64,000 nucleotides of DNA. It comes from Psammoneis japonica (Eukaryota). The notes below the pieces were generated by a model. The model had not been told where the DNA came from. It ran no database searches and saw only the letters and a program-made list of their open reading frames with translations. A program made the translations under genes and the position numbers. The stretch covers positions 121,330 through 185,329 of the forward strand of contig QPGO01000032.1 in assembly GCA_008632985.1 (NCBI GenBank). The letters are read 5' to 3'. Within the stretch, counting starts at the first letter, position 1. Each line of letters opens with the position of its first letter. Below are positions 40,101 through 64,000 of the stretch, piece by piece.

Positions 40101-40149
40101 GATGGTGCAAGTGCCTCTTTTAGCCAGGCATTTGGCTTCTTTCAAGCTT

Positions 40150-43831: not shown

Positions 43832-44360
43832 TCAATGTGATGCAGGCATGACATCAGCGCGGACATCGGGGCAGCGATATCCTGCTGCTACAAAGGCGAT
43901 AGTTTACGCAACTCTGATTGTAGCATCATGCGAGAATAAAAGAAAATATGAAATCATTGAATTACTAAAATATGAACTTCGTCTCTCTGAGGGGGGGCGC
44001 GAGGCGTTGTTCCATCATTTACTGCTGCTAAACCACTGTGTTTGGAACTTTTGCACGCGTTATCTCACCCCAAAAGAATTTGAAACTAAAGATTCAATGT
44101 GATGCAGGTATGACATCAGCGCGGACATCGGGGCAGCGATATCGTGCTGCTACAAAGGCGATAGTTTACGCAACTCTGATTGTAGCACCATGCGAGAATA
44201 AAAGAAAATATGAAATCATTGAATTACTAAAATATGAACTTCGTCTCTCTGAGGGGGGGGGGCGCGAGGCGTTGTTCCATCATTTACTGCTGCTAAACCA
44301 CTGTGTTTGGAACTTTTGCACGCGTTATCTCACCCCAAAAGAATTTGAAACTAAAGATTG
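43832..44360 (+). repeat. About 262-bp tandem duplication abutting the stop codon of paralogue C
   Basis: TCAATGTGATGCAGG(C/T)ATGACATCAGCG...GAAACTAAAGATT starts at about 43832 and 44094. Confidence 0.9.
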
Positions 44361-47300
44361 AAGGTGAGATCCGACCGTAGAGTCTGCAGGGCAAGCGTTT
44401 CATTGAGACTGGAAGCCCTGACAAATTGGAAAGTTATAGGTTGCGGTGCACCTATGGTAGCAAGGACGATGCTGTAGTAGCGTGCAGGTTCAGAAGGATC
44501 CTGACATTCAAGGTTGGACGCCTCAGCTTGTGCAATAAAGCTTGAAAAGTCATAATTGTCCGTATATTCCAGACATTGGAACTTCCTTAAAGGTAAATCG
44601 GCCGTGCAGTTCCGGTCGAATGGAGCAACAATGGGGGTGGGGTTTGTGACGTTCTCGCAACCATACGTTGCGCCAGAAAGCTCTTGAACAAATCCAGATA
44701 GTGGCTGGCAAGTCAGAGGAGTGGAGCCGTCGTTGCCCGTAAAGACGGGGTTACCAAACTCGTACCACGCTGAACAAGAGTACGGACGGCAGATGCCATC
44801 CGAGAAGCCACAAAATTCTAAAGCGCCACAGTCATTGTCTACGCTGCAATCCGGGCCCGGGGTGGGAGGAGGGGTGGGGGTATTGGAAAGTTCCGCATCC
44901 ATAAGGCGGGGTGGGTAATTTGGGTTCCACACAAACTCCTCGACACGGGTGGTGAGACCGTTAATGGTACTAGGGTTTGCGACACGGGTTTCGTACGTAT
45001 AGAATGGATTCCCATCAGAACACGTAAGGTCCGAATTTGTCGTGTCTTCCACAAATTGAGAGAAGTCTGTATTAGACGCATATTCCAGACACTCAAACTT
45101 CTGGAATTTATCCGGAAAGTCGGCTTCGCAGATGCGATTGAACTCAACTCTAAATTCCGGGTCCAAGAGCCTACAGCCCCAGTCGACTCCAACGGTTGAT
45201 GGATCAGGCCCAGCAAATGGCGAACACGAGAGCGGCACCGTGCCATCATTTCCGGTAAAACTGGTGGGCCCGAACTCATACCATGATTCGCAGGAAAAGT
45301 CGCGGCATCGGTTGTCGGTGCCACAGAATGCCAAACCCATACGCCCACAGTCTGAGTTCATGGTGCAGTTCCCGGCACCGGTTGGAAATGGCGTGGGAGG
45401 TGGTGGCATAGTACCTGTAGGAGACGGTGCAAGGGTAGGTGCAGGGGTCATAGGAGCTGTTGGCATAGTACCTGTAGGAGACGGTGCAGGGGTAGGTGCA
45501 GGGGTCATAGGAGCTGTTGGCAAATCAGGAGACGGTGCAGGGGTCGGAACTGGGCCCGGTGTCGGGAGGGGACGATCAGGAATACAGAAATCAAGGTCAT
45601 CGTTATCTTCGCACACGCTTCCATCTTCTGCATCTGCTTTAACAGTCACGGTCTTGTTGATACACTGGGGTGTGCAACTGTCGATCGTGCCTGGTTCAAT
45701 GATGCCGCGTGACTCGCTCGCTGGAATAGTCAAGCCGTCAGGTGGCAACAGATCCCTCACTTCTCCGTTGCAGGTGCGCTCAATCTCAGTGATTTCCAAG
45801 GACACATCACCCGGGTTAGCTATGACGTAAGTGTAATTCACATCAAAAAGACATTGGGAATCGATAACGCCGTCCTGGCTCCTGCATCCTTTAATCTGCA
45901 GGGCGCCGAACGTATCGTCGAGACTAATGGGCGCGTTCGCATTGGTACCAGATGCATCAAAGATGTTTTCTTGATTGACAGCACTAAGACCCGACTCAAC
46001 ATCGATGATGGTGCAGTTGAGCTCCGTTGGGAGACAAGTGCCATTCACGGCGCCAATGGTGATGGTTTGATCGATTTTGACGGTGCAGTTGCAGTACACC
46101 CTCTCCGTATCTACACATAAGATCAATGCTGAACCACCTTGAGGAATGGTATTCTCTTCGAAATCGGTACACAAGGCATTTGGTTGATCGTTATCGTCCT
46201 CGGTGCACAGAATATCAATCCAGGCAATAGTCAAGCGGTCAATGCACTCGCCACCGGTACAGGTCTCTGGGGGAGGTCTGATATCTTCGCAGGGTTCACC
46301 AGTGTCTGCGAGGATGCAGTCCAACGATACCTGAAGAGATTTGTTCAAAAAATCAACGACAGGTTAGAAGAAAATCCACAAGTTAGCATTGGGATGAATC
46401 GAGAATGTCGAGGGATCCAACTTACGTCCACATCACAAGGCAATAATTCAATGCAAAATTCGTCAGATTCACTGTCTTCACAAACAACGCCTTCTTCGTC
46501 CTCAGCCCTGACAACAACTTCGGTCGTGTAGCAATCCTCAATGCAGCGGTCCAGCGTTTGATTTTCCATTGGATTTACGCTTTCTCCCGGCTGAAGAGTT
46601 GTAGGATCGACAATGTCAATCAAGTCGTCGGTTTGGCCGTTGCGGGTTCGCAAAAGTTCAAGGATAGTAAAAGTCGTATCACCTGTATTCGTGACTGTGT
46701 AAGTGTATTTTAGATCCAAGAAGCAATCCTTCTCGTTCCCGTCGTCGTCCTCGCAGCTCTTTAGCGTAATACTACCAAACTTGTCTTGGAGTCTCAAATC
46801 CACTATTCCTGAAGTATCGAAAACCACCTCTTGGCAGAATGTATTGCCGTCGGGGCTTGAGATAACACACGTCATTGTTCCAGGTAGAGTGGAACCTTCG
46901 TTAGCTTCAAGAGTGAAGAAGCGATCAGATCCACTGCTGCTGACGGCATCGTCTTGAAAGGAAAAACCATCTCCTTCACAGGTAACACTCACAAGATCAG
47001 CGCTACTGCAGAAGTCTTCGTTGTCAGTAGTATCCATGCAAGTGAAGGTACCATCGTCCTCCTGACTGTTGTCACTTGTACCACATTCGCAATACAGGTA
47101 CTCGAATGTGAGCTTTGTGAGTGGTTCGCTAGTTGCGGCGCAATTGCCATCAATCGGTGGAATATTTTCACATTCGCTACCGACTGGTACGTCGTCGGCT
47201 CCGCTGGCAACTTCGCACTCAAGTATTACCTGATTGTTCAATAACACGGAAACGGCATATTAGCTTGTCTGCTGTTATTTGGTGAGAATCTTTTTTGCGC

Positions 47301-47717
47301 AAAATTTCCTTTACTTACATCAACATCGCACTCTCCAGTCGGCTGTGGGGTGGGTGGTTCAGTTGCCGGGGTGGGGATTGGCGTAGGTGGCAATGTCGAG
47401 AGTGGGGTGGGTGGTGGAGTAATCGGCGTCGGGGGTGGAGAGGGCGGAGGAGTAGGACCTGGCGTAGGTGGCGGTGGCGGCGTCGGATTCGGTGTTGGAC
47501 CTGGTGAAGGAGGTGGAGTAGGAGGTGGGGTTATGCTCTGACTGGTGTCTTGAAGAAGCCGTAGCCAGTATTGGCTTTCATCGTTCATCAAACCGGTTCC
47601 GAAACCAAACGCATTCCTCGAGTCGCTATCGTCTCGATTGCGGTCGCTATGGCTGAGCCTGTGAGAAGAGACCAAAAGGCATGTTGCTGCCAGTATCGTT
47701 GCACCCAGAATTCTCAT
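44351..47717 (-). CDS. Secreted Pro/Thr- and Cys-rich protein, paralogue C (intact); two introns at about 47318-47230 and 46425-46331
   Basis: Signal peptide MRILGATILAATCLLVSS, WLRLLQ, PTPP tract and two Cys-rich modules. These are followed by two C-terminal C.(M/V).(S/N)DCG..(A/E)FCG..D..CR..SC..W..FG repeats that A lacks. Confidence 0.88.
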
Positions 47718-50700
47718 CTTTATTGTCTTCTTGGTCACTCACACTCACCATGTTAGTTTTGACAAGAAAGTGAGAAAAACGAACAAGAGTGAAAAGTGAA
47801 AAGTGGCGATGCGTATCGCTGGTTTTACGGGTGAACGGTTACAATATTGACATTTAAGACACTTAAGCGAATAATATAATATATATTTAAATTTACTTAT
47901 GAATAAAATAATTGTTTTGGCGAAATGTGTGTGAATGTCATGCCGGCTTGAAATTTTTCAAATTTATGTATCGACCCATTTTCACAAATCTACAATGATA
48001 AAGGATATCAATACTGTTAACAGCCAAATATTTGAATTGCACATACCCGAAAGCATGGAACGGCCGGCGTGGGATCGCACACGGCAAGTACAGTACAGTA
48101 GGGCCCTACCGTAGGCAGTAGAATGCCGGCACATCTGGTTGTGTGTGCTGTCTGCATGTCAGAGCCTCTCCGAGAAAGAACAAAGGGTCCTCCAGAGGCG
48201 CTGCTGCCATTGGCAATTACATTTGGGAGCAATGGTGGGATCTGTGGGATTCCCAGCACAATGACACAGCACATGGTCATGACTCTGAAACTTCTTTCAA
48301 CAACACCAATGCTGTCATTTGCTGCTGCACAGGAAAACACGTGTTGCCCTGTTTCAAGGCAATTGGCCAGTTTTGCCATGTGAAAAAGTGCTGGGTTTTG
48401 CAGCTGGCTGCTGTGCCCCGAGGCACCCCACGTTCATTTTTGTTCTCTGTTGTGATCAAACTGCATTGTTTTTCTTGGGGTGGATGGCCAGTCAGCATGT
48501 CCATTGGTGGCAAACTCAGTTTCCATCTGCACAAACAGATGCAAGCGCAAAGGGCGGGGGAAAGTGCTGCAAAATGAACCACCTGAGTGTGGCCTTTTGG
48601 ATGACAAGCTCTCAACATGAGGTGGGCAAGGTGCACTCAGACCTGGTCTTCCCAATGACTTGTCTCTCAGATTTGTCACATTCTTTGTTTGCTGTGCTTT
48701 TTCATGGTGTCACATTGGGACAACTGCTCCCAGCACCTGTCAAAGGCACACCACATCAGAGACCCGCAGAAGGGGCCATGAGTCACAGGTCATCAAACCC
48801 CACCATCTCATGTTGTGTGCACATCTGCAAACATTTGTTTGCCCCCCTCATAATTGAAATCAACATTCACTTGTTGTTGGGGATGCAACACATTTGTTCA
48901 TTTTCACCAATCGGATTGTTCCATGTCGCACTTGTTGCTCCCTGATGAGTGTGATCTAATGCGAACTCATTGACTTGAGTGTCAACACCCATTTTGTTCC
49001 AACTGAAAGATGCTTTTTTTTCAGCAATGTTTTGACCTTTTTCAGCTTCCCCTCCAAAATTTGTGCCATTTGTCAGACCAATCGTGTGCATGGCATTTCT
49101 CTCCCTTCTGCTTGTGATCTGTGGATCCAATCCCCTGTGCTTTTGGTGAATCAGTGCAGAATTGTGGAAGTGCTGTGACAAGCAGTCCACAGGATTCCAC
49201 ATGCACTGTTTGTGCCCCTGTTGCCCATGGCAGTTTGCCTCTTCCACAATTGCAATCATGCCCTGCCTCAAAATCATGCCCAAGCAAAAGCAATGTCTCT
49301 CTTCTTGCCCTGATTTATTTGGGGACAATGCCAAATGCGAAACTGGCTTCACCGCTTGCTTTGTCACGTCTCCGGACCATGACGGTTTGTTGCTTGATGT
49401 TTTGTTGCCCCCAGCTGTGGCAACAAGCCCCTCTGATGGCATCTTTGATGCCAGTGACTCTCCAGCTGCCTTTGCAAATTTGACCAAGGAGGATTGGAAG
49501 GAAGCTTTTGATCAAGAAGACAGCAAATCTGCGTTGGGTGAGATGGCATCAGTGTCCTCTGGGAAGGATGACAAGACAGCCGGCAGCATTCCAGACATGA
49601 ATGTCAGCTCAGACAACGAATCCAATGGCAGTGACTCCACCAGCTTGGGCCATTCTCATGCCAGGATTCTGTCTGCTTTTGGAGACCTTGATGGTCATGC
49701 AAGTGACCTTTCTTTTTTTGACAAAAACAACAGTGATGAAGACAATTCTTTTGATGGAAGCAATGGTTCTGTGCTGCATGACCAAGCCAAAGCATGCACC
49801 AATGGTGTCGGCAGCGGCCACATGACCAAGTCACAGCTCTGACCGAGGCTGCGAAAGCACTCGTTGACATCCAAAACGATGCTGGTGCATCCAGCAAAAA
49901 GAGAAAGATTGTCAGGAAACTAAAGCATTTCACAGCAGCAAAGCCAAAGGACACAGACAGAAATGCAGGACCAAGGAAGCACAAGACACTGAGGAAGAGC
50001 AAAGGGTGGTCACCAAAGGCCAACAAGTTCTTTGTTGACATGGTCATGGAGATCAAAGAAGATGTTGCAAGTGGACACCTCAGGTGGTGGGAAGAGCTCT
50101 AAAGAGCCATTGCAACCAAGCAAAATCAACGGGTGGCAGAAGAAGCACAAGAAGGCTCCAATGATGAAGACAAACACCAGGTCAACTGTGCGGAAACATG
50201 CAAACTGGAGTTGGTGGCAGTTCAGTTGAGATTGACTCAGCAGCAATGACTCACACATGCACTTGTTGACACAATCAATTGCAGCAGCAACATGCAACAA
50301 ACAGATGGGCCACTGGGACAATGGAAGTGATTGTTTGCACATGCAAGTCAACCAATTGAGTTTGACAGCAAATGTTGAAAACCAATCCAAACACTGCATT
50401 TGGTTGTCACCTGGTCAGCGACAACAAGCTGAGTGAAATCCTGCAAAGAAACCTTGTTTGGCATTGCAACTGATTGAGTTGCAGCTTTCTCATTAGGATT
50501 GACCACAGTTTGTTGATGTGATCAGACACTGATTAGTTTGCATGGACATTTGTTTGTTTGTCAATCACACCCATTTGTGGCAAACAGGTCTGATTCATGT
50601 TAAATGGCAATGATTCATCACAAACAAATCATTTGTGTTCCAACACTCACACATGCCATCTGCAACATTGTCCTTTGGTCTGACCACAAGACAATTCATG

Positions 50701-53700
50701 AAAACAGAGCTCTGATGCACTGTGATGCCATTGCACACAAAAGATCCAGGCATTGCAAGAGTGAAAAAAGAGAGAGCCATTTCCATGGGTGGAGGACACC
50801 AGCCAACAAAAGCCCTCCAGACAAGAAGTGACAAGAGTGTGAGGTCATGGGGCAGGCATGCAAAGAAGAGGGTGCAAAAACAAAGCACAAAAGAAGCTGG
50901 ACACACCAGCTGCCTTTCCGTGATCCACTCATCAGAAGAAATGCAGCAGCAGCACTGGAGAGGAGGATCAAGCTGTCAGAGATTAAGAATTGGCATTGAT
51001 GGAACAATTTGTTTTTGTTGCAAAACTTGATGCGCTCTGCCTCCTGCTGTCATTTTTGTGCCTGTCGCTCATGAGAAACAACTGCACTGTCAGCACACAC
51101 ACACACTCCTCAGCAATGCAAACAATGGTGTCAGCTGAGAAAACAAAAATGGAGAAGGGGTGCTGTCACAAAAGTCAGCAAATGTGCTGCTTCTTGTTGC
51201 TGCTGCATCCAATTGGATGGTGAGGTGGTCAACAGAAAACAAGAAATGCAAGAAGAACATGATCATCAAATCCAGCACTTTGGCTTCTTGTTGTTGTCAT
51301 TTGACAATGCTCTCACCTTTGCCAACATGAAGCCATCAACATGCCTGAGCAGCTCTGCAAAGACTGGCAACTTGCAACTTTGGCAGTCTGCTTGATTGTT
51401 TTGCTTTTCCCTTCACAAACATTCACTCCTCTCATGAATTCTCAAGGATCAACAAGAGACCCAATGCCCCATCTCTTGCACAGCAAAACCATTGTTGTGG
51501 AGCTCCTGCTTTTTTGGGAGCCTCTTCCACCAGACATTCTTTCCAACCATGGCTGGCAAGAAGCAGTGTCCAAAGCACGTGTGTCTTCATGTTCTCTGAC
51601 CCTTGCAGTGTCATGCATGGGGGTGTGGCATTTTCACTGTGTTGGCTTGTCTCCTCTGCATTGGCTTTGTTGCCAATTTGCAATTTTCTGCAACCCATGT
51701 GAAGATGAAGTCAATGCAATGAACAAGAGTGGTGTGGCTGTTTGCTGCAACCACAACAATGAAGTGTGCTCACTGCTGAAGAAATGTTTTCTTTCATTTC
51801 TCTGGCAACATGGTCAAGCTTGGTCTGTTCTCTGATTGCCTGCATGACCAGCGGCCATTGCACTCAAGTGTGGCACAGCTCATTTGTGCCTGCCACACCC
51901 AGACATCCATCATGGCATTTTGGCATTCCTTCATTGATGAACTTGAGCCTCAAAGCAGGTCAGTTTGATGCATTTTTCTAACATGGCATTGTCTCTGTTG
52001 CTTGTCCTTGTCTTGCAACAATGCTTTCACTTGCTGTTCCTGCTGCAGCCCACACTCAAATGCAAAGAGTTGTCAGTGTCATCATTGTTCTGTGTGCTGT
52101 TGCTCCAAGGTGGAGGATGATGCCCTCAAAAAGAACTGGGTTTGTGCAGTCCGCACCGCGGATGAGCAGGAGGGCTTCTTCAAGCTTGCCACCAGCTGCA
52201 AAGGGGAGTGGGTGCTCCAAAAGGTTGCTGAGTCACAGTCAACTCCCCACAGCATGGGTGCACCATCACTGCAGCCTTGACACAAGCATTTGTGGCATGA
52301 CCAGGAGATGGAGCTCATTGATGTCACAGCACCCTCTGTGAGAACTTCTGTGTGTGGCAAAACTTTCTCTCTCTGTTGTTGCATCATGGAAATCATTTGT
52401 GCCAGTGTTGGCTTTTCAATCCACTTCAACAGACATGCAATCATGTCATGTCAACCATGCACTCCATTGTGCCTGTCACAATGCAAAGATTTTGAATGCA
52501 CTGACTGGGGGTGGGGGGGGGGGGGGGCAGCACCCACCACCTCAACAGCTGCAGCACTCCATTTTCCAGAACAGCGCCAACAGTGCTTTCTGGATCCAGG
52601 AGCTCATCTGGCAGTTTGGACACAGTGCTTCTCTGCTTGTGCTCCCCTCAAGAGACAGAGGAGGAGCTGAGATGCACTTCATCTGTTTCTTTGCACTGTG
52701 TTAGATGGGGTCAGCAGCCGCCAGCAGCTGTGCCAGAATTTTGAAAACAAAACAATTTGCACGAATTGCAATGATGGCTGCAGTGGTCTCAACTGTGCAA
52801 AGACCAAGTTTGTGGTCAAGAACAAAGTGCTCCCCAGCTTTCCTCTGGCTGTTCACAATGAATTTGAGGAAAAAGATGTTCCCAAATTTGTCCTTTGGTG
52901 CCAAGCAGAGAGCACCTGTTTTAGTGTGCATGAGCCACACACATTTGTTGTGGCTCACATGTCATGCTGCCCTGCCACTCAGCAGCTCTTCACTTGGACA
53001 GCACCAAGCCTGTTTTCTTGTGCACCTTGGTGCTGAGGCTGTCATGATGCAGTGCTGTGCCATGCATTTGGACCCTCCTGATGTCATTGCTGTGGGGAGC
53101 CACCACATGACATTGCCAAAGCACCCCAGCTCCAACTCATCATGGCAGTGCTGCACTGTGCTGCAAGTGTTGGCAAGCATCACCTTGATCTGTGAGCACA
53201 CAGTCAGGTCATTCTCCTTTAGAAACAACAAATCAAAGCTGAGGTCAGCTCTTCCTTCTCATGGTCTGCTTCTCCTGGCACCCAAGACTGCACCTTGGGC
53301 ACCAAAGTTGATTTGCAGATTGCAGAACTTGCAGAACTTCTTTTCAACCTCACCACCATCGCCATGTGCCAAGATGTCATCCCACAGCTCATTCAATCAG
53401 GGCCATGTTCAAGAACAAAATGGTTGATGGTTGACACAATGCAAAAGGAAAAATGAGACTGCTCCACCATGCCTTTGACTGCAAGCTGGAGGCTGCAAGC
53501 CCAGCAAATTGCAACCACTCTTCCAAAAGGTGCATGACCTCATCTCAGGAAATGCAGTCAGAACAACTCAACAACCCCAGTCAAATCCCATCTTCCTGCA
53601 CATCCCTTGTCACCCAAAGGATCCGCCATCAAGTGAACTGCAGCAGCTGTGGAAAGGCACAAGGGCCAACCCCTCCCTGCTCACAACCCCTCTCAAAACT

Positions 53701-53856
53701 TCAAAATCTTGCTCGACAACCCATCGGCCTTGACCACATGATTGTCTGTTGCAGCCACTTGCATGACCTTGGAAATCTTCTTTCCTGCTGCAAACTTTGC
53801 ACCTCTCATGGCCCCCCAGTTTCATCCTGCTGGGTTGCAAATGGGGTGGCCCCTGA

Positions 53857-53894
53857 GAGAGAGAGAGAGAGAGAGGCAGAGAGAGACAGAGAGA
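53857..53894 (+). repeat. (GA)n microsatellite
   Basis: GAGAGAGAGAGAGAGAGAGGCAGAGAGAGACAGAGAGA. Confidence 0.9.
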
Positions 53895-56800
53895 TGGCAA
53901 TTGAGTTCAAATCATCTCAATCAACTTGTCCATCCTCCTTCAGATTTTTCAATGCAACAACTTCAACCATGTGTGAACAACAGCAACCAACAGCTGATGA
54001 AGCCACCATGAAAGTCTTGTTCTCCTGACTTCAGCCAACAACATTGTTGTGCCTGCCATTGGCTGAAACAGTTGGACAAATGTGTTGCAAATGTGAGCAC
54101 ACAATCACAGTGGACAACAAAGGGATGAGGCATGGCAGCCTCAAAAGAGCAGAGCTTCTGGTGCAGATCATCAATGAGGCAGCAATCTGCCACTGCCAGA
54201 GACCTTGTTGTTGTCAATGCTCTTTTCCTTTCATGTCATGTTGACAAAACAAAGTGCTTTTTGGTGGCCCTGGATCTGCACAATGTTTTTGAACCTGGAC
54301 TTGTTGGTGTTGCAACACAACTGCTTGAAGGAGAGCAGAGCTCTTGCTCAACAAGGCTTGAGTGCTTCCACGCCACATGCCTTTCTTCTTGTTGAGCAGT
54401 TGGACAAAGTCCTTTGTGCTGTCAAAGTTTTAATCAAGGGGCTTCTTTGCCAACTTTTTAGACTTTTTTCCCTTTCTGGTGTTGAACAAAGTCAACAGAT
54501 TGTTGAATGTGACCACAAACTGTCTCAATTTTCTGCAGCTGCTAAATGCTGCAGCCCTGCATGCAGCACACACATTTCAAAGACTCTGCAATGGAAACAA
54601 CAATGATGCTCTGGGCTTGTGCACAAAAAAGTCAACCTTGGATGTGAAGTTCACTTCTTTTTTCACAAAGCTTTCTGAGTTGTGCCAAGCATCTCAGGCA
54701 GCGTGGATGTTCTTGCCAAGTCCAGAAAGATTGGAGAACAACTCTGGTGTGCAAGCTTCTGTGGTGGCTGCTGTCAGGAAGGCACTTGCAGAGCCAACTT
54801 TGGCTCTTGATGCACAGACAAAGCAGCTGTGGCAGCCCAGCAACATTGCCAGCATGTTGGCTGCAGCTGCAACCTCTCCTTCCTAAAAAATGAAAGGCAC
54901 AGCACTGTTCCAGTCATGTGGTGATGGATGTGCCACCAGGCCAGAAAATCAGGGGATGGCAGCTGTTTTTTTGTGCACAAAACCCTCTGACAAAAATCTG
55001 TTGACAAACATCTCAGTTTTGTCATCTCTGGCAGAAGAGCTGCAAATGGGTCAGATTGAAAGAAACGGAAAGACAAATTGATGAAAGCAAGAGAAAGTTT
55101 TCTCTTGCAAAAGAGCTGCTTCCCAATGTCAGCTGCCCCCACTGACAGCCCCTGCATGTGTTTCCACATGCTCTCTCAAGAGCTGATGTTGCCCTTTTCA
55201 GATGGCACCCAGCTGGGTCCCCCGACACCCTTTTGGCCACTTCTGTCATTGGCACGCCCCTCTTTCAGCATGATGCACAACAATTTTTAGTGGAAAATGA
55301 CTGGGGTTGATGCCTCATGGCTTGCATGCTTGTTGTCTTGTCAGGTGATTTTTTGCAGATTCAATGCATTTTGTTCTACACAGGATCTGGTGCAGATTCG
55401 TGCACTTCAGAAATGCCCACCAACAACCACAATGTCTTTGATGCAAACATCTTCCATCCACACCTGCCAGCCCACAACAATTTCTTTTTCTCCCACTGGC
55501 TGCTCATGTCCTTCACCTCATGTCACAGTGAAAGTTCTGCCCCCCACTGTGGCACTTGCGCATGTTCATTTGGACAAACCATCAGCATCACTTGACAACC
55601 ACCCATTTGCTGCACAGATTGGCACTTCTGTACAAGATTCAGCATCAACTCCATGTGAGAACAATGTTTCTTTCAACGTCCTTCTTGTCATGTCATCAAG
55701 ACTCCCCATTTCACACATGCAAGTCCTGAACACCCCCTCTTCTCCCCACTGGCACCCACCAACCACCAACCTTGCTTCTCTGTGAGCAGTGAATAGATTG
55801 TTTTTGTTCTCTGGCACGCACAAATGTGAAACCCAGTCAGTCTTTGTTGAACACATGACTCATCCTTGGAAGCAAGGTTTTTCTTTCAGAGTTTGCACTG
55901 ACTTTGTGTCCTCTTCTTCAGCTGGGGTGCTTTGCATCCTCTCCAAAGGAAAGCTTCCATGCAATTGCTTCTCAGCCAGTTGTCTCCATTGGGCACCTTT
56001 GTCCAGAGGCTGATCACATGAACTTCTGCTGCACCCCCCCCCTTGCAGGGTGCACCGGAAGTGTGGGTTGGCTGGTGCTGGTGTTGCTGGAGAAAGGTGT
56101 GATGGCACTTTAAAGTGGTTTTGTTCTTGCAAAAGAGATGCACACTTGCCACAAAGTTTTCCCTTGTCCCCTTGTCATTGTCACCTGGGGCGCTGCTGTC
56201 CTTGCCATCATCATCATCATCAATGCCACCTTTGCCACCCACCTCCTTGTGCTGGGAAAGGAGGCAGTGACAGCAGTTGCCACATTGCAGCACCTTTCAT
56301 CACACCATGATGTGTGGCAACCACCACTTTGGGATGTGTTGTTGGGCTTGCTTGTCACCCAAATCTTCTTCAGAGTTTTCATCAGCTGCTTTTGTTGCCA
56401 TCAAATGTGGCACCAATGCTGTCATTGGAGTCATTGTCCAGCTTGTCATCAGAGTCACTCTTGAGCAGTTTTGCAAAAGCACCCAAAAATGCCTGGCCTT
56501 TTGTGACATGTCATCTGAGCCATCATCACAATTGCTGTTGACATCACCAAATTTGTCTTTGTCTGCACTGCCATCTGAGTCACAATCAGAGCTGTTGTTT
56601 GGCCCTGATCCTCTGCTGCATCATCAGCTGCACATGGGGTTGCTCCATGAAGCCACTGTGGTTGGGGTTGACACCTGAGTGCAAGTGCAGAAACCTGCAT
56701 GGACAACACAGAAAAGCCTGAGTTGTTGCAAGGAGGAACCTGTGGTGTCCCTTCCTCTGATGCTGTTCATTGTGCTGCATCATGTCCTTGGACACCACAC

Positions 56801-56949
56801 AGCTTTGCATCATGCACATTTTTGTTTGGCAATGAGCTTGACAACCACTGAAGAAAAAGCAAGGGCCCAAGATTTAACCTCAAGTCACCAGGATGTCATT
56901 GTCAAAACCACCTGAAGTAGCCAGGATGTCCACTTCTCAACTTGTCAAA

Positions 56950-59900
56950 CCAGGTGATTTTGTCAAATGTGGCTAACCAACCACCTTTTGGGCATCATTT
57001 TGTTGGACTTTTTCTCTTTCAAAGGACCATCCCAAGCAGCAAAACACAGAGGCATCAGGTCCCAGCATTGGTCCTGAGCAGCAGCATTGGCTGACACTTT
57101 TGTTCTGAAATTGGCGCCACTCTGTTGTGTGGCCAACATGCTTTGATCAGCTGGGGCAGGGCCAGCATTGTGCATTCTGCAAATGCTTTGCAGCACATTG
57201 TGCCAGGGACCACATGCCCCACACTCTGCATCACAACAACATTGACAAATTGTGCTGCACATCCTCAAGGTCAGGGTCTGCTGTTGAGTGCACCTCTTTT
57301 GTTGTGTGATGGTGTCAGCTGTCATGATGCAGATGACAACCATCACTGTCAATGCACTCATCTGATGACATGTGTTTTGCTGCAAAAACTTTGCTCTTGT
57401 TCAAAGGGAGCAGGTGATCTGGGCTTGTCACGACAGAAAGTGTGATTGCTGCTGTGCCTTGTGGGTGTTCTTTCTGTTGCCAAAATTGCACTGGACATTG
57501 GTGTGGCAAAATGGAAAGACAGGACCACACAAACATGTCAATGTGCATGACAGATGAATGAGAAAACCAAATTTTCAAATGCAATTTGAAAAGTTTGCAA
57601 AAGATGTGGCGTGGCTGCAGAGCGGTCAAGTGCTCTGCATTGGTCTGCAAACAGAGCCAAATTTCAAAGATGCACCATGAAAGCAGTTGATTGCCAACAC
57701 AAAAGCTGCTGAATGGACTTGGTGCAAAAGTTCATTTGGTGGGGCATCAAGCAAGCTCCACCAACACACCAAAGAGAGTGGGGTGACCAGCACCTTTTGA
57801 CAGATTTCTTGTCCTTGACAGGATCAAGTCTGTGCACCTTGGCAGCCACTTTGCCACTTTGCACATTATGTCATTTTCAATGCCCTTGGAGGTGATGAGC
57901 TTGACAGCCTTGCAAGCAGGTTTGCACAAGGACAGCGGAGCAGCAGTGTCAGATGCACCATGATTGACCAAGTCAAGACCCCCCTGACAAAGATTCAAAG
58001 CAAAGAGCTTCTCTTTGCTGTGCTGGCCATTCTTCAAGATGCACCAGCACACCCACATCTTGGCAACAGACTCAACCAGGACATTCAAGATGTCAACACC
58101 GGCAAGGCATTGGCAATCCATGGACTCAATGCAGAAGTTGTTGAGGCACCATGCATGAGTGACTCCCTTTGAGCAAAGCATTGCATGCTTCACATTGGAA
58201 CAACCAGACATCTCTGTGCCCATTCTCAGAGATGGGAAACACAAAACAGGCACAAATTGTGCTGCTGTGTCAGAGTCAGTTTGGAGGCATTGACAGCCCA
58301 GGTGGTGTGATGCTGGGAAGACAGCACAAACAACAATGTGTGCTGTGACAGGGACCAGGAAGTGCACTGCAGATGAATTTTTGCAAGTTGAGAAGCTGCC
58401 AACTGTCAAATCTGCTGCAAGCACAACTGCACTGCTTGTGTTTGCTTGTGCTTTTCTTGGGTGCCATGGTGGTTTGTTGTGACTGCACATTTTTCAAAAC
58501 CAACCACTGATGAAATTTTGTTGCAGGGCTCTTTGTTTTGTGGCCAGACACAGCCAAACAGATTGTGAGAATGCATGCAAAGTTTGCTTTTCTCAGTGTG
58601 ACCTTGAGGACTCAATTTGGTGCCACCTCATGATGGATGTTCTGGGTGCGGTGCATGTTTGGGGTGCTTGCTCAATTTCTGATCCTTGCATCAACAACAC
58701 CAAGGAGTCAGAAATGATTGTTGGCAGGGGGAATTCAGGCAAAGAGGGATCAGGTTCCAACCATTTAAAGGACTGAGGAGGAAGGCCTGGATCACGTGCA
58801 GTGTTCTTGTGCATCAACCCCCAATGTTCAGTGTGGTGCAACACATGCTTTGCCATTTGCTTGAGAGAGGTGCAGTGAATCTCATTTTGTGGTTCTTGGA
58901 GAACTTCGATGAGGTCACAACAGGACAACCAACATCCAATCAACAACAAGTGTGCAAAAAAAGTTCACTCAGAACAGACCAATGGGAGAAACCCTGGGAA
59001 GCCACTGATGCATCATGTTCTGGGGTGCCTTCAAGGGGGGCTTCAGTGGCACACAGTTCTGCAATTCATTCAACCAGGATGGGTGTGTCCTTTAAGTCAC
59101 TGTCAGATTCACAAGCAGCAAGAGTGTCCAAGCCATGGGTGTCTCAAAAACACGGTCCAGGTGGCTTGAGCAGTTGATTGTGACAGAATTGTTGTTCTGC
59201 ATCACATCAATTCCATTGAACTCTGCAACCAGACCTGGGCACTTGAATGGAGGTGAATCTTCATTCTCCATTTGAAGTTCCTCACCAATGTGATCACAGA
59301 TTGCCTTGGCAATGTGCTCTGAAGGACAAACAAGGGCAAAATCATCAACTTGACAAAGCAACAGCATCCTGACACCATCACAAATGCCAGAGCAGATGCA
59401 CTTGTCATGGGTGATGGCATTGTGGAAGAGCAGTTTCACATCTGTGAGGATTAAATTGATGTGCTTCTCCCAAAGAACACCAGCTTCAGGATGACCTTGG
59501 AGGGCATGCTTGAGCAGAAGGCCAAAATGGCGGGGAGCCACATTGCCATGGTGCATTTCACACCATGTGGCATGTGCATCATTGGCGGCAACAAGGGCAG
59601 GTTTCAATGGACCTGGAGAGTGAGCGCAAGCAGCATTGCGAGCATTGCTGCCAAAAATCTGGCATGACAAAGCAGCAGCAAGAGCAAAGAACATCTTTTA
59701 AACCAACCAGTCCACACAAGAAGCATGTGCAGACATCAACTTGCTTGTGCAATGCTGGCAAGGCAGACTTGGAACCATTTCCACACTGCTGAGATCAACG
59801 CTGACCATCAGGTTTCACCGTGTGATCCCAATGTGGGCATGTGACAGTTGCACCAGGAGGTTGTGGCTGCAGAGGGGACCACACATGCTGGGTGCAAAGA

Positions 59901-62450
59901 ACTGGTCCAACTGGCAGTGCTTGTCTTCCTCCCATTCAGGCCAGGTGTCCAGTTTGCAAAGCTTGGAATGAGCAAGATGATCAAGAGCAGCTTCTTCAGG
60001 CGTGAGGGAGTGGGAGCCAATGACATTGAGATGTGAACAAAAATCATGACATCCACAGGAACAGATTGTTCCGCAAAGTCATCATCAGGGCAAAGAAGAG
60101 CCATTGAAGATTGCACATCCTCCAGGTTGAGTTCCAGGATGTGTGAGTTGTCTTCCATGGAACCAGGATCAAACAGCTCCACTTCCTCAAAAAAGCTTCA
60201 TTGAGAGTTTGCGAGTTCAAATGTCATTCCGGAGAAAAAGCAATTTCAAAAGAGGTGATCTTGTCACAAAAGATGTGAGCAAGTTCATCTTGGGAATCCT
60301 TTGGGGTAAAAACTTCAAGCTTGTTGACAGATGCAACACATGTGCCCATGAGCTTGTTGCAAGCAGCACACAGGAGAGAAAACAAGGAAGCTGCAGGACT
60401 GTGTTGCTTGATTTCAGAGATGCAGATGTGGTCCATCAATGCACACTGGGAGAAAGCAAAGCCACAGGTGGAATCTTTTGGAGGATTTTTCATGGCACAT
60501 GTGACAGTCTTGGCAAAAGGATTCAATGATGACATGAATGTGGGAACCATGATCTCCTGGGCATCAGCCAGAAGACATTGGCCATTTTCCATGCATTGCA
60601 AATGAGCAGCATTCTTTGGAGGGAGGTGATCCAATGGTGGCAAACCATTCATGTCATCATCATGGCAAACATGTTTTGCTGCGTTGACCTTGCTTGTCAG
60701 TTGCTGGATCCCACCGCAAAACATTCTTCAAGGTGTTGGGAAGACAACCAAGGAAGACACCTTTCTTGGAGTTTGTCTTGAATTGAGCAGGACAATCTGA
60801 TGGTCGCAATGCTCACAATCAGCACCCAAAAGTCTTCAGAGCAGTGAAGTCTTTAACCTTGCCAGCAGCAAAACAGTGGTTGGCAATGCACCCTGATCTT
60901 TCATGGGAGCAGAGCTCTTGATTTGCAGGCAATGACAAAAAGCACAGGACCAAAATCAAACCGGAAGGTTGGCGCCAATCAAAAAAGCACAAACTGCATT
61001 CTCAACAGTCAAATGTGAGCATTCAACAGGTGTCCACATTGATTGGACATTCCAGCGCCTGTGGGACACACGTCATGCTGGAATTTGTGTTGGAAGAGGT
61101 CAAGAACTTTTGGGTTCTTGTGCAATTCTCAACACTTGAGTGAAAACTTTGCCATGCTGGAGGACACCGTAGAAAAGAACTGCTGGGGTTGCATTGGCAG
61201 CAGTCATTGCAGTGTGCGTGCAGCAAGCACTGTCAGCATGTGTCTTCTGGAGGACTTCAGATGCAATGTCTTCTGATTTGAAACTGGAAGCCCGCGCAAA
61301 ATCATGTTCATCAATCAAGGTAGAATGTGGACTTGGGTGGCAAAAGGTGCACACAAGGAGAAACCTCTGCATTCTCTGCAAGCACTTGCAAGCAACCAAA
61401 GCCATTGGGCATCATGTCAGATCCTTCAGTTGCAGGTGACATCTTCAAGGGACCCAGGTTGTCAGGTCCAAAGGATTTGCAAGCATGGAGAAGGTTCTTG
61501 TGCCCTGTGCATGAGATCCAGGCACCTGCATCAATCTGTGCATGACATGTCACAGAGTTGCTGAGCACATGGTTGATGGGGAGAGCCAGACAAGCTGCAT
61601 CCACAGTTGGAAATTGGGTGGGAGGGTCTGGCAGTGAAAGGATGGGAGAAATGCAAGCAGCATTCAATGGTGACAAACATTGATGTGGGACATGTTCAAA
61701 GTCTTGGCGGGCATTGTCAGCCAGTCGGAGAGCCAGATCTGGTTGCAGCAGAGGACTCCTTGAGGAGAAATGTTGTTGCAAGCAAGGGGATCTTGTAGAA
61801 AGGATTTGGCATCCCATCCAGTGCAATGAACAAAAAAACCATCAGCAAGCACAAGACATTTAGCCCCATCTTCACAATGGAGGTTTCCAGACTTGCAAGG
61901 GGTCAGCAAGGTTCCCAAAATCAGCTTCCCATCTTCTTTGTGTTGGTGGCAAGCCAGCACATCCTCAGGCAATCCCTTTGGGTTGAAGGTGCAAAGTGCA
62001 AAGGACACTTGATGGAGCTGGGGTCATGGCAGAGGGTTTAGAAGGAGACACAGAATTCTTCAGTGCATTTGTTGCAGCTTGCTTGGATTCTTTTGGACCA
62101 GGCAGAGTGGTTGAGGCCTTGGCAAAGTCATTGGGAGTGAAACCTGCAGCAGAAGCTGGAAGAGGTGAAGAACTTGGGGCAGGAGAAGGTTCTGGATGTG
62201 GAGAGTCAGATGTGTCATTCCAACATTCATGAGATTGGAAACCAGGATGAACACAGAGATGGACAGTCCCAACACAGATTGTTGTGGCACCCTGATTGTC
62301 TGCAATTGTTTTGATCACAGCCTTCTGAAGATTGGTGTGGTTCATGCAAATTGGAGAACTTTGAGGACAGCTGCAAAGAGAGCAGCCTTGTCCACAAGCA
62401 CTGCAATCAATGTGCAATCTTCAGTCAGCACAGCTTTTGGGGTGATGAGA
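56950..62450 (-). mobile_element. Degenerate Ty1/copia LTR retrotransposon (CoDi-like) pol region
   Basis: A protease-like AQIDAGAWISCTG...LLH...GFGCLQV (about 61550-61380) lies upstream of RT motifs ALQGHPEAGVLWEKHI and LLCQVDDFAL (about 59500-59330), giving PR-(IN)-RT order. LTRs not recognised; limits approximate. Confidence 0.7.
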
Positions 62451-62849
62451 TCCTGAACGGTCTTGTGACAGAGAGCTGCAATGGCACTGCTCTTGAGGTT
62501 TGGAGGAGTGTGTCCATCCAGAAGATCTTTGGGAGCAGGTGTCTTGTCTGAACATGGCTGATTCAGGTGTCAATGGGCGTTGTGGGTGAGCAATGTTGTG
62601 GTGTGAACTCAACCTGTGTTGACTTGATCTTGGCTTTAAATCAATGGCAGTTGTGTTCTTGTTGACCATGGTTGTGCATTAAAAAATTAAATTCCTTTGC
62701 ACAGTGCTGGCATGTGTTCTGCAGTGGTTGTGATGATCACAAATTGAGAAAGAAAAATGGCTGTGACAAACATGATGATTTCAACAAAGAAACGCCACCA
62801 AATCACACAGCAGGCATTGAAATGTGGCCATGCTGAGGAAGACAAACAG

Positions 62850-63540
62850 CGTGCTGCTGCTCACAACCTTCTTGCAGACCACTGGTGTTGGGACAATCTA
62901 ATGACATCTGGGACAGATGGCAATGCTGTGCCAGAGAAGAAAGGAAGTGAGCAAAGGAGAGATCATTGGATCTCTCAAGTCTGTCTGTGCCAGTCTGTCT
63001 GATGCAAGGGAGTGCACTCCAAGTCTTGGGTGTCTGTCACTGTGCACAGTGCAAACTTTGTTTGCACACAAAGCACAAACACCAGTTGAGCACAACAAAT
63101 GTGCTGTCAACAACAGCCACTGGCTTCAGCACGTCATCATCATTGCAACAGCTGGCATTTGTTGTTGTTGCTGCACAGCATGCCACAAACTGTGTGAGCT
63201 CTGATTGTGCTTGGAGCAAGCTGGGCTGTGGCTGCATGCACTTGTGTCAGCTGCTGTTCTCTTGTCTCCAATGAAGTGCAGCAGTTTCATGCATTTTTCA
63301 AAAGTTTCTTTTGCCATGGTGTGCCCAAATGGGGTGGCTCCACCAGGGCACAGCATTTGCTCCAAACATCTTCAAGGTCTTTTTTGCACAAAATCATGTG
63401 TGATGTGTCTGTGGGATGAGAGCAGCACAGCAAAAGATGATGGCAGCAATGCAAAAAGCTTGTGAAAAAAAAATCCAGCTGCTGTGATGGTGATGGCCAA
63501 ACACAACAAGCAAGGCATCCAAACATGTGGAAACTTGACA
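62850..63540 (-). pseudogene. Possible piggyBac-like transposase remnant
   Basis: LEDVWSK...FGHTMAKETFEKCMKLLHFIGD resembles the piggyBac (I.DYWS...F...MSR.RF..I...LHF.D) block. The rest is too decayed to judge. Confidence 0.35.
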
Positions 63541-64000
63541 AACAATGTCAGCAAAGAGTGTTTTCTCTTGTGTGGTTTCAGCAAATGGTCCCAGCATGAA
63601 GGTGCCTCAACTCAAACAAAACCAGAAATCTGTTTTACCTCTGCCTTGCTGCTGCCCACACCAACACCAACCACAGCAGACCCACATTCCCCAGTGCCCA
63701 CAAAGGGCAGCAGGGACAATTTTTTAACACTGTCAAACGTTTCAGAAAGACAATGCCATTGACACATTGTCCAAAGGCAATGCCGTTGATGCATCATCAG
63801 AAAGAGAGGCTGTTTGTCCAAGTCAGAACAGTGACCAACCGGATGCTTGTCACACGGCAACCCCAGTTGCTGTGCCTCAAAGAATGGACAAGCCCAGCCA
63901 CACCACTTGGGAGACACCAAAACAAACACTGCAGAAAACCAAACATGTGTCTGTCTCCAAAGATGGCATGCTTGAAGAGATGTGAGAGAAATTCCTGGAA

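Follow-up and report, generated by a model that had tools for sequence, protein, structure and literature searches.

Four blocks of the 64,000-nucleotide window analysed here, from the nuclear genome of the diatom Psammoneis japonica (contig QPGO01000032.1, positions 121,330 to 185,329), have lost nearly all of their TpA dinucleotides. The blocks are probably silenced, mostly repetitive or foreign DNA that has been eroded by two independent, context-specific transition processes. In the first, methylated CpG would decay in the ordinary way to TpG or CpA. In the second and faster one, TpA would become TpG or CpA through A>G changes, which can affect either strand and depend on a T 5' to the mutated A. 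That a targeted process of this second kind exists is very likely, and the diatom repeats carry its mark; the one earlier report of such a process concerns an alga only distantly related to diatoms. A preliminary description of this DNA had proposed a second, non-CpG pathway that affects both strands of silenced repeat blocks, and our results support it; its framing in terms of fungal repeat-induced point mutation (RIP) does not apply, as the host is a diatom.

TpA depletion in four bounded blocks

Composition was scanned in 64 one-kb intervals across the 64-kb stretch. Inside the four blocks the observed/expected ratio (o/e) of TpA was 0.01-0.26 and that of TpG and CpA 1.3-2.2, whereas intervals lying wholly in gene regions had TpA at 0.41-0.97 and CpG at 0.65-1.19. 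Pooled over 38.7 kb, the blocks have o/e values of 0.07 (TpA), 0.26 (CpG), 1.78 (TG) and 1.81 (CA), compared with 0.62, 0.94, 1.07 and 1.19 in flanking host genes; separate host stretches range from 0.60 to 0.78 for TA and from 0.91 to 0.97 for CG. TA density is 4.7 per kb in the pooled blocks and 41.3 per kb in host DNA, and TAA plus TAG together number 3.5 and 20.7 per kb. The initial observation that the blocks nearly lack TpA and are dominated by TpG and CpA (o/e about 1.8 pooled) is confirmed, and the TpA loss is extreme. Added together, the o/e values of TA, CG, TG and CA come to 3.88-4.10 in the blocks and 3.79-4.00 in host DNA, a conserved total, as expected if TA and CG both became TG or CA.

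Depletion of TA and CG increases together across the blocks, from block 1 (1-6000, continuing past the window's left end; TA o/e 0.149, CG 0.643) through block 2 (8400-12300; 0.088, 0.300) and block 3 (30500-43800; 0.066, 0.246) to block 4 (48200-64000, continuing past the right end; 0.041, 0.106), the most strongly depleted, with only 44 TA in 15.8 kb. The earlier label 'CpG-devoid' fits block 4, fits blocks 2 and 3 less well (0.25-0.30) and fails for block 1 (0.64). A recount of 54001-54360 agreed with the reported absence of both dinucleotides (0 TA and 0 CG, with 46 TG and 41 CA), and the longest run without TA, at 53221-54430, extends over 1,211 bp; across 17.6 kb of host genes the longest is 171 bp. 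At the block edges, composition switches sharply within 200 bp.

Contigs from public run X1 match 50678-52527, 55867-58952 and 58927-60607 with 0-2 differences, supporting the assembled bases in block 4, although the run may be the assembly's own sample and hence not independent support. Errors of assembly or base calling at modified bases, for which the possible identity of run and assembly leaves some room, have a negligible chance of explaining the pattern: the contigs agree with the blocks over 1.7-3.1 kb, the reading frames are truly degraded beyond mere recoding, and the signature recurs in metagenome assemblies produced by other projects, as well as in Illumina data from mutation-accumulation lines of another alga (bioRxiv 10.64898/2026.01.13.699255).

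Contents of the blocks and replacement of tyrosine

Among the contents of the blocks are an intronless pseudogene, the degraded remains of a Ty1/Copia element, repeats without an assigned family and, possibly, what is left of a Plavaka-like transposon. The repeat families of block 4 are multi-copy in the genome, as judged from 1,536 contig pieces at 80% likeness or more and a summed contig depth of up to 2,435, where single-copy bins have about 60-100. Within this block lies a degraded Copia pol region on the minus strand (58635-61030; integrase C-terminus, reverse transcriptase (RT) and RNase H region; TA o/e 0.04), broken into several frames. In a tblastn search with the 1,280-aa polyprotein P0121, it matched residues 356-1168 (E 4e-97), and weak RVT_2 and SH3_retrovirus matches are arranged in Copia order. 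Firm transposable element (TE) identification is lacking for blocks 2 and 3, and a Pfam search at 33-39 kb returned no family. The name 'Plavaka-like' survives as a language-model lead for the plus-strand open reading frame at 35292-36071 (one TA in 780 bp): 29 of 30 feature matches fell in the Plavaka set (score 0.95) at a recognition below the reliable level, and neither a Pfam match nor a word-seeded homologue was found for it. Block 3 is inserted in a spacer between tandemly arrayed DUF7467 genes and includes a 16-N gap (37322-37337) and short tandem duplications. Block 1 holds the intronless class-III aminotransferase-like pseudogene on the minus strand (1064-2401; TA o/e 0.25, CG 0.75), which runs in one frame with a single in-frame TGA at 1517-1519.

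Both coding remnants confirm the earlier suggestion that tyrosines now read Cys (TGY) or His (CAY). The open RT frame of the Copia element (59095-59697, minus strand) encodes 201 residues with no Tyr, 11 Cys and 13 His. Opposite homologue tyrosines it has Cys at 29%, His at 22% and Tyr at 0%, whereas controls have Tyr at 48% and His at 4%; its conserved Tyr columns are now TGC and CAC. The aminotransferase pseudogene has His at 19%, Cys at 17% and Tyr at 14% of such positions, together with I>M (ATG), L>S (TCA) and V>A (GCA) changes. At least one control homologue in both tests also had high Cys plus His (maxima 0.36 and 0.49), so that such values are not confined to the window.

Direction and place of mutation

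Repeat copies differ by CA<->TG exchanges far more than host duplicates do. Five repeat pairs show 38 such aligned dinucleotides in 1,416 bp and two host-gene duplicate pairs show 4 in 5,189 bp (Fisher p 1e-21), which places the mutation after the copies split. One repeat match, between 32571-33238 (plus strand) and its partner 49827-50504 (minus strand) at 81% identity, has 17 CA<->TG exchanges in 662 bp.

Non-TE DNA flanking block 3 at its right-hand edge (43440-43876; TA o/e 0.03) was hypermutated in place, as judged against an unmutated paralogue in a normal gene region (25655-26400; TA o/e 0.41) that serves as polarity reference. Relative to it, 9 of 12 TA in the flank had become TG or CA, one was kept and none was reversed, and 9 of 19 CG had likewise become TG or CA. 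The next 226 bp of the paralogous segment (43877-44102), which lie beyond the domain and act as an internal control, kept 12 of 12 TA (contrast with the flank, p 3e-4). The direction is A:T>G:C, opposite to that of RIP, in agreement with the preliminary description; within the window it is read from this one flank (12 TA sites) and the two protein comparisons, the totals of the paralogue contigs (362 A>G and 287 T>C against 310 G>A and 286 C>T) being symmetric and directionally uninformative.

The process acts in situ and is bounded by the domain rather than by the element; at one edge it spread about 400 bp into non-TE DNA. It would target a bounded chromosomal domain and end within about 200 bp at the domain's edges. 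The description 'transposon-targeted' holds for repeats but not in the strict sense of TEs only, as the pseudogene and the flank are also affected. Duplication alone is no trigger, since host duplicates of 3.3 kb and 1.9 kb at about 90% identity kept their TA; the duplicated host gene segment at 44094-47387, about 89-91% identical to 26356-29688, has normal TpA.

Spectrum and context in a related Copia family

We obtained a substitution spectrum from an environmental Copia family, whose hosts may not be diatoms and in which polarity was taken from column majorities. Across 80 metagenome loci of relatives, TA o/e ranged from 0.23 to 0.82; these relatives are not TA-poor by nature. That the elements are TpA-poor by intrinsic composition, or through selection against TpA (UpA), without any hypermutation, is contradicted by the repeat-copy, flank and relatives data and retains hardly any probability. 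Host-gene TpA is itself mildly under-represented in the window (o/e 0.62), and even the least-mutated environmental copies have more TG than CA on the sense strand, but copies resolve to TG or CA independently, conserved tyrosines turn into Cys or His together with a broken frame, relatives reach the upper end of that range, and one and the same sequence is rich in TA beyond the domain edge but free of it within.

In 60 copies, 2.6-74% of majority-TA sites per copy read TG or CA, while the remaining A/T transitions amounted to 0.5-7.4%. T[A>G] is dominant, as the preliminary description had predicted, in this environmental family: in the 10 most mutated copies the A>G rate was 0.298 after T, against 0.045 after A, 0.054 after C and 0.025 after G; in the 15 least mutated, the rates were 0.038, 0.025, 0.034 and 0.014. 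Conversion also prefers a 3' pyrimidine (C 0.375, T 0.29, A 0.18, G 0.15; that is, TAC>TAT>TAA>TAG). The surviving TA of the window obey the same context rule (Spearman -0.70, p 0.024, 10 classes), with ATAT occurring once in the blocks and 69 times in host DNA, and TTAA 44 and 51 times.

TpA conversion is independent of CpG decay. The two are uncorrelated across 56 copies (rho 0.11, p 0.43), and CpG C>T hardly differs between the copies with the most and the least TA mutation (0.109 and 0.098). These values count against error-prone patch repair, in which T:G mismatches from 5mC deamination would enter non-canonical mismatch repair and draw Pol eta-type errors at WA. CpG is depleted in the blocks too, so 5mC deamination happens there, and the joint increase of both depletions over the four blocks fits such coupling. 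Patch repair is nonetheless most improbable: the A>G rate after A is not comparably raised, ApA is undepleted in the blocks (o/e 1.22, host 1.14), block 1 has lost most of its TA with CG still at 0.643, and only 1 of 231 B. natans hypermutations was other than AT>GC (bioRxiv 10.64898/2026.01.13.699255). The Pol eta candidate of the preliminary description is disfavoured accordingly.

Fifteen copies together offered 1,011 majority-TA sites, of which 519 had become TG or CA and 52 had changed otherwise. Thymine-side chemistry would have a TET/JBP-type enzyme make 5hmU or 5fU at TpA in silenced DNA, the modified T then mispairing with G or being misrepaired to give T>C. TpA is palindromic, and sequence cannot separate A>G from opposite-strand T>C. 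Base J in trypanosome telomere repeats occurs at T preceding A, and dinoflagellate 5hmU is enriched at TpA, but 5hmU pairs well with A. Glycosylase excision of a modified T should moreover broaden the spectrum, whereas outcomes are almost all transitions, both in this family and in B. natans, where all but one of 231 mutations were A>G or T>C (bioRxiv 10.64898/2026.01.13.699255); we consider this chemistry unlikely.

The 519 conversions comprise 311 TG and 208 CA on the sense strand, 40% being T>C, and none of 16 copies showed strand-coordinated runs at p<0.05 (lowest 0.075). The sense-strand A>G excess can be attributed to the TAY preference acting on Tyr codons. It could also be read as A-to-I hyperediting of retrotransposon transcripts by an ADAR- or ADAT-like enzyme before reverse transcription, so that copies insert already mutated, and the sole firmly identified element is indeed a Copia retrotransposon. 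Such RNA-level editing is, if anything, even less probable than patch repair, given the share of T>C, the missing strand coordination and the mutation in place of non-transposing DNA (the flank and the pseudogene); in B. natans, moreover, the targets are single-copy integrated DNA viruses mutating in vegetative growth (bioRxiv 10.64898/2026.01.13.699255). The events of the TpA process would instead build up site by site on both strands.

Precedent and candidate agent

The phenomenon is not unprecedented: in Bigelowiella natans, a 2026 preprint measured A:T>G:C hypermutation of the same kind, likewise restricted to TpA. All of the 230 A>G or T>C changes found there in two integrated viral regions of mutation-accumulation lines were at TpA, at a hypermutation rate of about 6e-7 per site per generation, and the genome contains clusters that are poor in TpA, rich in CpA+TpG and enriched for RT and DDE domains (bioRxiv 10.64898/2026.01.13.699255). 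As there, TpA alone becomes TpG or CpA by strand in bounded foreign or silent regions, and single-copy DNA is susceptible; TpA frequency averages 0.0018 in TpA-poor B. natans coding sequences and is 0.0028 in block 4. The diatom process may well be the same one, although the host there is a chlorarachniophyte, and rates were measured in B. natans while the diatom process is known from its footprint. In the active B. natans regions described, depletion is far from saturated (the NCLDV region has a Rho TpA of 0.45), but in the diatom it is near complete. The diatom lineage may since have lost the process. The preprint describes neither spread into flanks, seen in the window, nor, in its abstract, Results and Discussion, a 3'-pyrimidine preference, seen in the environmental family, and its main text does not use the words 'CpG', 'diatom' or 'stramenopile' (bioRxiv 10.64898/2026.01.13.699255). 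Our literature search for TpA-erasing hypermutation found no report from diatoms.

Like fungal RIP, the process ruins repeats in place by dinucleotide-specific transitions and can leak into flanks. RIP, however, changes C to T, chiefly in the CpA context, and generates TpA, and it needs duplication, whereas the host duplicates are spared here and single-copy DNA is mutated in B. natans (bioRxiv 10.64898/2026.01.13.699255). Diatom DNMT4 is described as related to RID and of unknown function, and loss of DNMT5a in Phaeodactylum as removing methylation and de-repressing young TEs (PMC9998398). Deamination of 5mC, which marks diatom TEs according to the same source, accounts for the CpG half of the pattern but cannot remove TpA, and TA loss is the faster of the two (9 of 12 against 9 of 19 sites in the flank, and block 1) as well as statistically independent.

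Given a TpA process, the likeliest agent, at about even odds, is an adenine deaminase of the TadA/ADAT2 kind, a candidate suggested by sequence-context resemblance and the best fit of the three mechanisms in the preliminary description. Such an enzyme would deaminate A at TpA in heterochromatin to inosine, which would then be copied as G. The order TAC>TAT>TAA>TAG is reminiscent of UAC, the context of the TadA target in tRNA-Arg, and of YAC, which early adenine base editors prefer. TadA, ADAT2-ADAT3 and fungal sexual-stage editing likewise produce A>G via inosine and require U or T 5' of the A, fungal A-to-I mRNA editing being described as strongly preferring U at -1 (PMC11156358). Those enzymes act on RNA loops, whereas the diatom substrate would have to be chromosomal DNA, on both strands, in a chromatin domain. 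Animal APOBEC3 and ADAR also leave context-specific transition footprints in retroelement copies, there as a host deaminase defence, but they edit cDNA or RNA during replication in strand-coordinated clusters; the diatom and environmental pattern lacks strand coordination, includes non-mobile DNA and has TpA as its context.

Four sharply bounded domains are nearly devoid of TpA

A 1-kb scan of the window combined with counts per block confirmed the near-absence of TpA in four domains, for which the preliminary description had proposed a TpA>TpG/CpA process beyond CpG decay; we judge that core inference to be right. The TA observed/expected ratio (o/e) falls to 0.149 in block 1 (1-6000), 0.088 in block 2 (8400-12300), 0.066 in block 3 (30500-43800) and 0.041 in block 4 (48200-64000), with corresponding CG o/e values of 0.643, 0.300, 0.246 and 0.106, versus 0.60-0.78 for TA and 0.91-0.97 for CG in the gene stretches between blocks. 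Pooled, the blocks contain 183 TA in 38.7 kb, compared with 995 in 24.1 kb of host DNA, and their longest run without TA is 1,211 bp, versus 171 bp in 17.6 kb of genes; the interval 54001-54360, originally singled out as an example, indeed contains 0 TA and 0 CG. Block edges, including those near 30.45, 43.85 and 48.2 kb, are sharp to within one 200-bp bin, and the genes between blocks are normal.

TG and CA are correspondingly abundant in the blocks (o/e 1.64-1.90). The summed o/e of TA, CG, TG and CA is the same inside (3.88-4.10) as outside (3.79-4.00), and GC content (0.476-0.507) is similar to that of host DNA (0.466-0.488). This constant sum and unaltered GC fit with conversion of both TA and CG to TG/CA. 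Read from sequence, the signature of methylated-CpG decay is present for CpG only (CG o/e 0.106-0.643 across blocks), which agrees with the 5mC described on diatom TEs in PMC9998398.

Fungal RIP drives C:G>T:A changes (CpA>TpA) and raises TpA and AT content, whereas the window has lost TpA and retains a GC content like the host's. RIP is also triggered by duplication, whereas host duplicates of 3.3 kb and 1.9 kb (~90% identity) have been spared here, with 4 and 0 CA<->TG sites and normal TA, so duplication is insufficient as a trigger.

Degraded elements, multi-copy repeats and a pseudogene lie within the domains

Genes between the blocks are eukaryotic and encode a kinesin-14-like motor, COG8/Dor1, a PGA_cap protein and a tandem DUF7467 family. 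The PGA_cap ORF shares 73% identity with an Amphora coffeiformis protein, and the other named high-scoring matches are mostly to diatoms (Ditylum, Thalassiosira, Cyclotella), which makes the host a diatom rather than a basidiomycete and removes the basis for a fungal framing. Three related DUF7467 units on the minus strand, mutually 82-91% identical, form an array at 22400-30300 and 43900-47400, and the spacer between units 2 and 3 is the insertion place of block 3. Between blocks 1 and 2, a 446-aa open frame (6789-8126, minus strand) has normal TpA and no Pfam family.

Pfam searches of 84 stop-to-stop frames (at least 119 aa) in the blocks returned only 2 weak matches, a near-blank result that is a sign of heavy degradation and illustrates how TA-free regions defeat homology-based TE annotation. 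Open frames are inflated in the blocks because TAA and TAG are nearly gone and only TGA closes frames. Long spurious ORFs run in all six frames of blocks 1-4, and a gene caller could mistake them for genes; TA-free regions also bias composition-based analyses.

When stops in block 4 were read through as X, a weak SH3_retrovirus match (integrase SH3-like) appeared upstream of a weak RVT_2 match on the minus strand, both under their Pfam gathering scores. An exhaustive phmmer search based on the reverse transcriptase (RT) frame at 59095-59697 (minus strand) found 699 proteins at E<=0.001 (best E 2.9e-47), and residues 356-1168 of P0121, a homologous polyprotein of 1,280 aa, align across several frames of 58635-61030 (minus strand; tblastn E 4e-97). 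With integrase upstream of an RVT_2-type reverse transcriptase, as in Ty1/Copia, 58635-61030 is by homology a degraded Ty1/Copia element. No direct repeat pair surrounds it in a window self-comparison at E<=1e-10, and its LTRs may be degraded or lie past the window end.

Block 1 carries an intronless, class-III aminotransferase-like sequence on the minus strand (1064-2401), 50% identical to the homologous protein P0273 in a single frame. That frame holds one in-frame TGA (1517-1519), at an Arg position of homologues, and the sequence is therefore a pseudogene rather than a TE. Several of its homologues are located on Mb-sized ENA contigs, so a bacterial-type origin, or one by horizontal acquisition, is possible.

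In block 3, the label 'Plavaka-like' holds for ORF 35292-36071 as a language-model feature resemblance to Plavaka transposases (score 0.95; recognition 1752, under the 2300 mark) and fails at the level of alignment. The ORF matched no Pfam family, PF18759 included, a word-seeded homologue search against longer proteins was empty at E<=0.001, and plus-strand read-through of 33000-39000 gave 0 Pfam families. The same block contains a 16-N assembly gap (37322-37337) and two short tandem duplications at 35104-35359 (129 bp, 99%) and 41102-41455 (177 bp, 90%), the latter already with 3 CA<->TG sites.

Sequences of block 4 are multi-copy: 1,536 contig pieces from the public sequencing run X1 fall on 44001-64000 at 80% likeness or more, and summed X1 depth reaches 2,435 in block bins versus ~60-100 in single-copy bins. 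A simple GA-type repeat at 53846-53897, reading ERERER in one frame, was skipped in read placement. No RNA data sets containing 44001-54000 were listed.

TpA was lost in place and after copies separated

A sequence artefact, in which the assembled bases would be wrong, is contradicted by X1, in which contigs of 1,856, 3,084 and 1,681 bp show 0-2 differences from block 4, although X1 may be the assembly's own sample. Among variants of block 4 in the X1 contigs, the 24 best-supported rows, ranked ahead of 1,798 further ones, are states private to the copy in the window, with no TA signal among them.

An intrinsically TA-poor composition of the elements would also leave TA rare, and several lines of evidence contradict it. 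Five pairs of repeat copies differ by CA<->TG at 38 positions in 1,416 aligned bp, compared with 4 in 5,189 bp of the two host-duplicate pairs (p 1e-21). Such positions derive from ancestral TA or CG resolved separately in each copy, and the changes therefore postdate copy separation. Relatives of the Copia RT at 80 metagenome loci have TA o/e of 0.23-0.82, and Tyr makes up 3-6% of most proteins homologous to the RT frame; thus, the family is not TA-free by nature.

The same non-TE sequence is, moreover, TA-normal outside a domain. The sequence at the right edge of block 3 (43440-44102) is paralogous to 25655-26634, which lies in a normal region. Within the flank at 43440-43876, 9 of 12 aligned paralogue TA have become CA (6) or TG (3), one is kept and two have become TT or AA, so that TG/CA accounts for 9 of the 11 changed sites; zero sites run in the reverse direction. 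In the adjoining 226 aligned bp (43877-44102), all 12 TA are kept (p 3e-4 versus the flank). Because one and the same non-TE stretch is TA-normal outside and TA-free inside the domain, the process acts in place on chromosomal DNA and is bounded by position. No spreading was seen at the left edge of block 3, where similarity to the paralogous spacer stops at 30285-30336 and TA is still present. A poly-G tract of ~18 G in the spacer (26516-26533) is far shorter in the paralogue (43987-43995), making it a length-variable homopolymer.

The flank also informs relative rates, with CG converted to TG/CA at 9 of 19 sites versus the 9 of 12 for TA. In block 1, TA stands at 24% of the host level and CG at 68%. 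Together, these losses indicate that the TpA process outpaces methylated-CpG decay a few-fold within one stretch of DNA.

Likely Tyr positions in TE proteins had been described as reading Cys (TGY) or His (CAY), and the Copia RT frame bears this out with 0 Tyr among 201 residues. Opposite Tyr of homologues it has Cys at 29%, His at 22% and Tyr at 0%, versus Tyr at 48% and His at 4% in 88 controls (the 95 of 150 hits covering at least 150 aa, minus 7 with <2.5% Tyr), in which Cys and His together average 0.057 with a maximum of 0.36. At the two Tyr columns with the best conservation its codons are TGC and CAC, and it has TGT at one conserved Arg. The pseudogene has His at 19%, Cys at 17% and Tyr at 14% opposite homologue Tyr, versus Tyr at 45% in controls (60 of 77 hits, those of at least 400 aa); its combined Cys and His share of 0.36 compares with a control mean of 0.064, one control reaching 0.49. 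Other conserved positions of the pseudogene show I>M (ATG), L>S (TCA) and V>A (GCA). With both this pseudogene and the non-TE flank hit, the process is not exclusive to TEs, contrary to what had initially been supposed.

Environmental Copia copies reveal a TpA-specific transition spectrum

The substitution spectrum was derived from 60 of the 80 metagenome loci, those at least 80% identical to locus L013 across at least 1 kb. Their alignment spans 4,467 columns, 3,687 of them with a clear majority base, and the column majority was treated as the ancestral state. Per copy, 2.6%-74% of TA has been converted to TG/CA, while remaining A/T transitions amount to 0.5-7.4% and CG>TG/CA to 12-40%. Majority-polarised in this way, the family displays the predicted TA>TG/CA excess: counting both strands, A>G per A with a 5' T is 0.298 (501/1,682) in the 10 most mutated copies and 0.038 in the 15 least mutated. 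The corresponding rates are 0.045 and 0.025 with a 5' A, 0.054 and 0.034 with a 5' C, and 0.025 and 0.014 with a 5' G.

Outcomes at the 1,011 sites with a TA majority, taken over 15 mutated copies, were TA 440, TG 311, CA 208, TC 27, CG 2 and others 23. TG or CA thus makes up 519 of 571 changed sites, in line with the A>G/T>C changes at TpA only that mark the Bigelowiella-type process, and the near-absence of anything but transitions speaks for deamination rather than lesion repair. C>T at CpG stands at 0.109 among the 10 most mutated copies and at 0.098 among the 15 least mutated, and the extent of TA conversion in a copy shows no correlation with that of CG (rho 0.11, p 0.43; 56 non-redundant copies). 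Pol eta patch repair, an agent suggested in the preliminary description, would act at WA motifs coupled to C deamination. It is contradicted by the low rate at AA relative to TA and by the lack of coupling to CpG decay, and is disfavoured as a candidate. Biased gene conversion was likewise rejected, as it lacks TpA specificity.

Conversion depends on the 3' neighbour of TA (C 0.375, T 0.29, A 0.18, G 0.15), and an A two bases upstream raises it slightly (0.33 versus 0.21-0.26). A sense-strand excess of A>G arises because this TAY preference falls on Tyr codons. The window obeys the same context rule. Favoured contexts hardly survive in the blocks relative to host DNA (ATAT 1 versus 69; ATAC/GTAT 3 versus 142), whereas TTAA (44 versus 51) and CTAA/TTAG (44 versus 80) persist. 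Over ten symmetric classes, TA survival in the window and the environmental family rates give a Spearman coefficient of -0.70 (p 0.024).

ADAR-type RNA editing ahead of reverse transcription would produce clusters of A>G changes coordinated by strand and restricted to sequence that is transcribed and reverse-transcribed. Along the copies, TG and CA outcomes are randomly interspersed, with 0 of 16 copies reaching p<0.05 in runs tests for strand coordination, and the hits on the flank and the pseudogene further contradict this explanation. Clustering of converted sites is absent in 15 of 16 copies (p 0.025 in the other). The skew of TG versus CA along the blocks was considered as a clue to strand bias and rejected, as coding-strand composition yields the same skew in unmutated relatives.

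A candidate DNA adenine deaminase and its relation to known systems

These data show a TpA-specific A:T>G:C process acting on both strands of chromosomal DNA, within bounded domains made up of silenced repeats and foreign DNA. Sites are hit one by one, independently of CpG deamination, and host duplicates at ~90% identity are spared, so duplication alone does not set the process off. The domains would correspond to heterochromatin, and the most likely agent would be an adenine deaminase that requires a 5' T and prefers a 3' pyrimidine, in which case deaminated A would become inosine and be read as G. Thymine modification is a rival account of the same changes. Enzymes of the TadA/ADAT type characteristically need a U or T 5' of their target, and the UAC/YAC context is linked to TadA-type deaminases. 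In fungal A-to-I editing, U is preferred at -1 (PMC11156358).

The absence of precedent originally assumed for this signature does not hold, as the same signature occurs in Bigelowiella natans (Mettrop et al., bioRxiv 10.64898/2026.01.13.699255), the one description of it that full-text literature searches turned up. In mutation-accumulation lines of this alga, 231 of 302 nuclear mutations fell in integrated giant-virus and virophage regions, and 230 of those 231 changed A to G or T to C, invariably within TpA, with a rate of ~6e-7 per site per generation. Its genome holds 124 TpA-poor clusters rich in CpA and TpG, RT and DDE domains are over-represented among its TpA-poor coding sequences, and the authors proposed an ADAT2-like DNA deaminase as the agent. 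The main text of the preprint makes no mention of diatoms, stramenopiles or CpG. The window likewise confines the loss to bounded regions, namely four blocks that contain Copia and multi-copy repeats, and therefore represents the same kind of process, in saturated form, in a second, distantly related algal lineage. Observations new to this analysis are in-place spread over ~400 bp of a flank (43.44-43.85 kb), the pseudogene hit, the independence from CpG decay, the lack of strand-coordinated clusters and the TAY rule.

It is conceivable, if somewhat doubtful, that diatoms possess a natural adenine 'base editor' of chromosomal DNA: a TadA/ADAT2-derived enzyme, brought to heterochromatin and preferring T-A-pyrimidine, that would deaminate the A of TpA in silenced foreign DNA, whichever strand carries it, and so erase TEs, integrated viruses and pseudogenes. 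Given the same signature in a rhizarian alga, it would then belong to an ancient line of genome defence within the SAR supergroup, alongside cytosine methylation and mirroring fungal RIP in the reverse mutational direction. A DNA adenine deaminase, if that is the agent, would give engineered adenine base editors a natural counterpart.

A TpA-removing mutator aimed at silenced foreign DNA, acting against the usual GC>AT bias, has been documented in one organism (2026 preprint). The saturated diatom footprint, together with partial ones in environmental Copia relatives, suggests a wide distribution of the process across ecologically dominant algae. This genome-defence-like mutator appears to extend to diatoms, where genetic tests are possible, moving the question into a group with working genetics; CRISPR knock-outs are workable in Phaeodactylum (PMC9998398). 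Any mechanism must accommodate four constraints: chromosomal DNA in bounded domains, both strands without processive clusters, independence from CpG decay and a TA-pyrimidine preference.

Some environmental copies are far more converted than others. Loci L001, L017/L022, L052 and L080, mostly from microbial-mat metagenomes, have 67-74% of TA converted, while closely related copies from those data sets have hardly been altered; these copies look like a population caught mid-process. Five Copia RT fragments among ENA metagenome assembly proteins (P0148, P0168, P0169, P0194 and P0245) have 0 Tyr and raised Cys/His, and by their residue content are probably TpA-hypermutated copies from other environmental eukaryotes.
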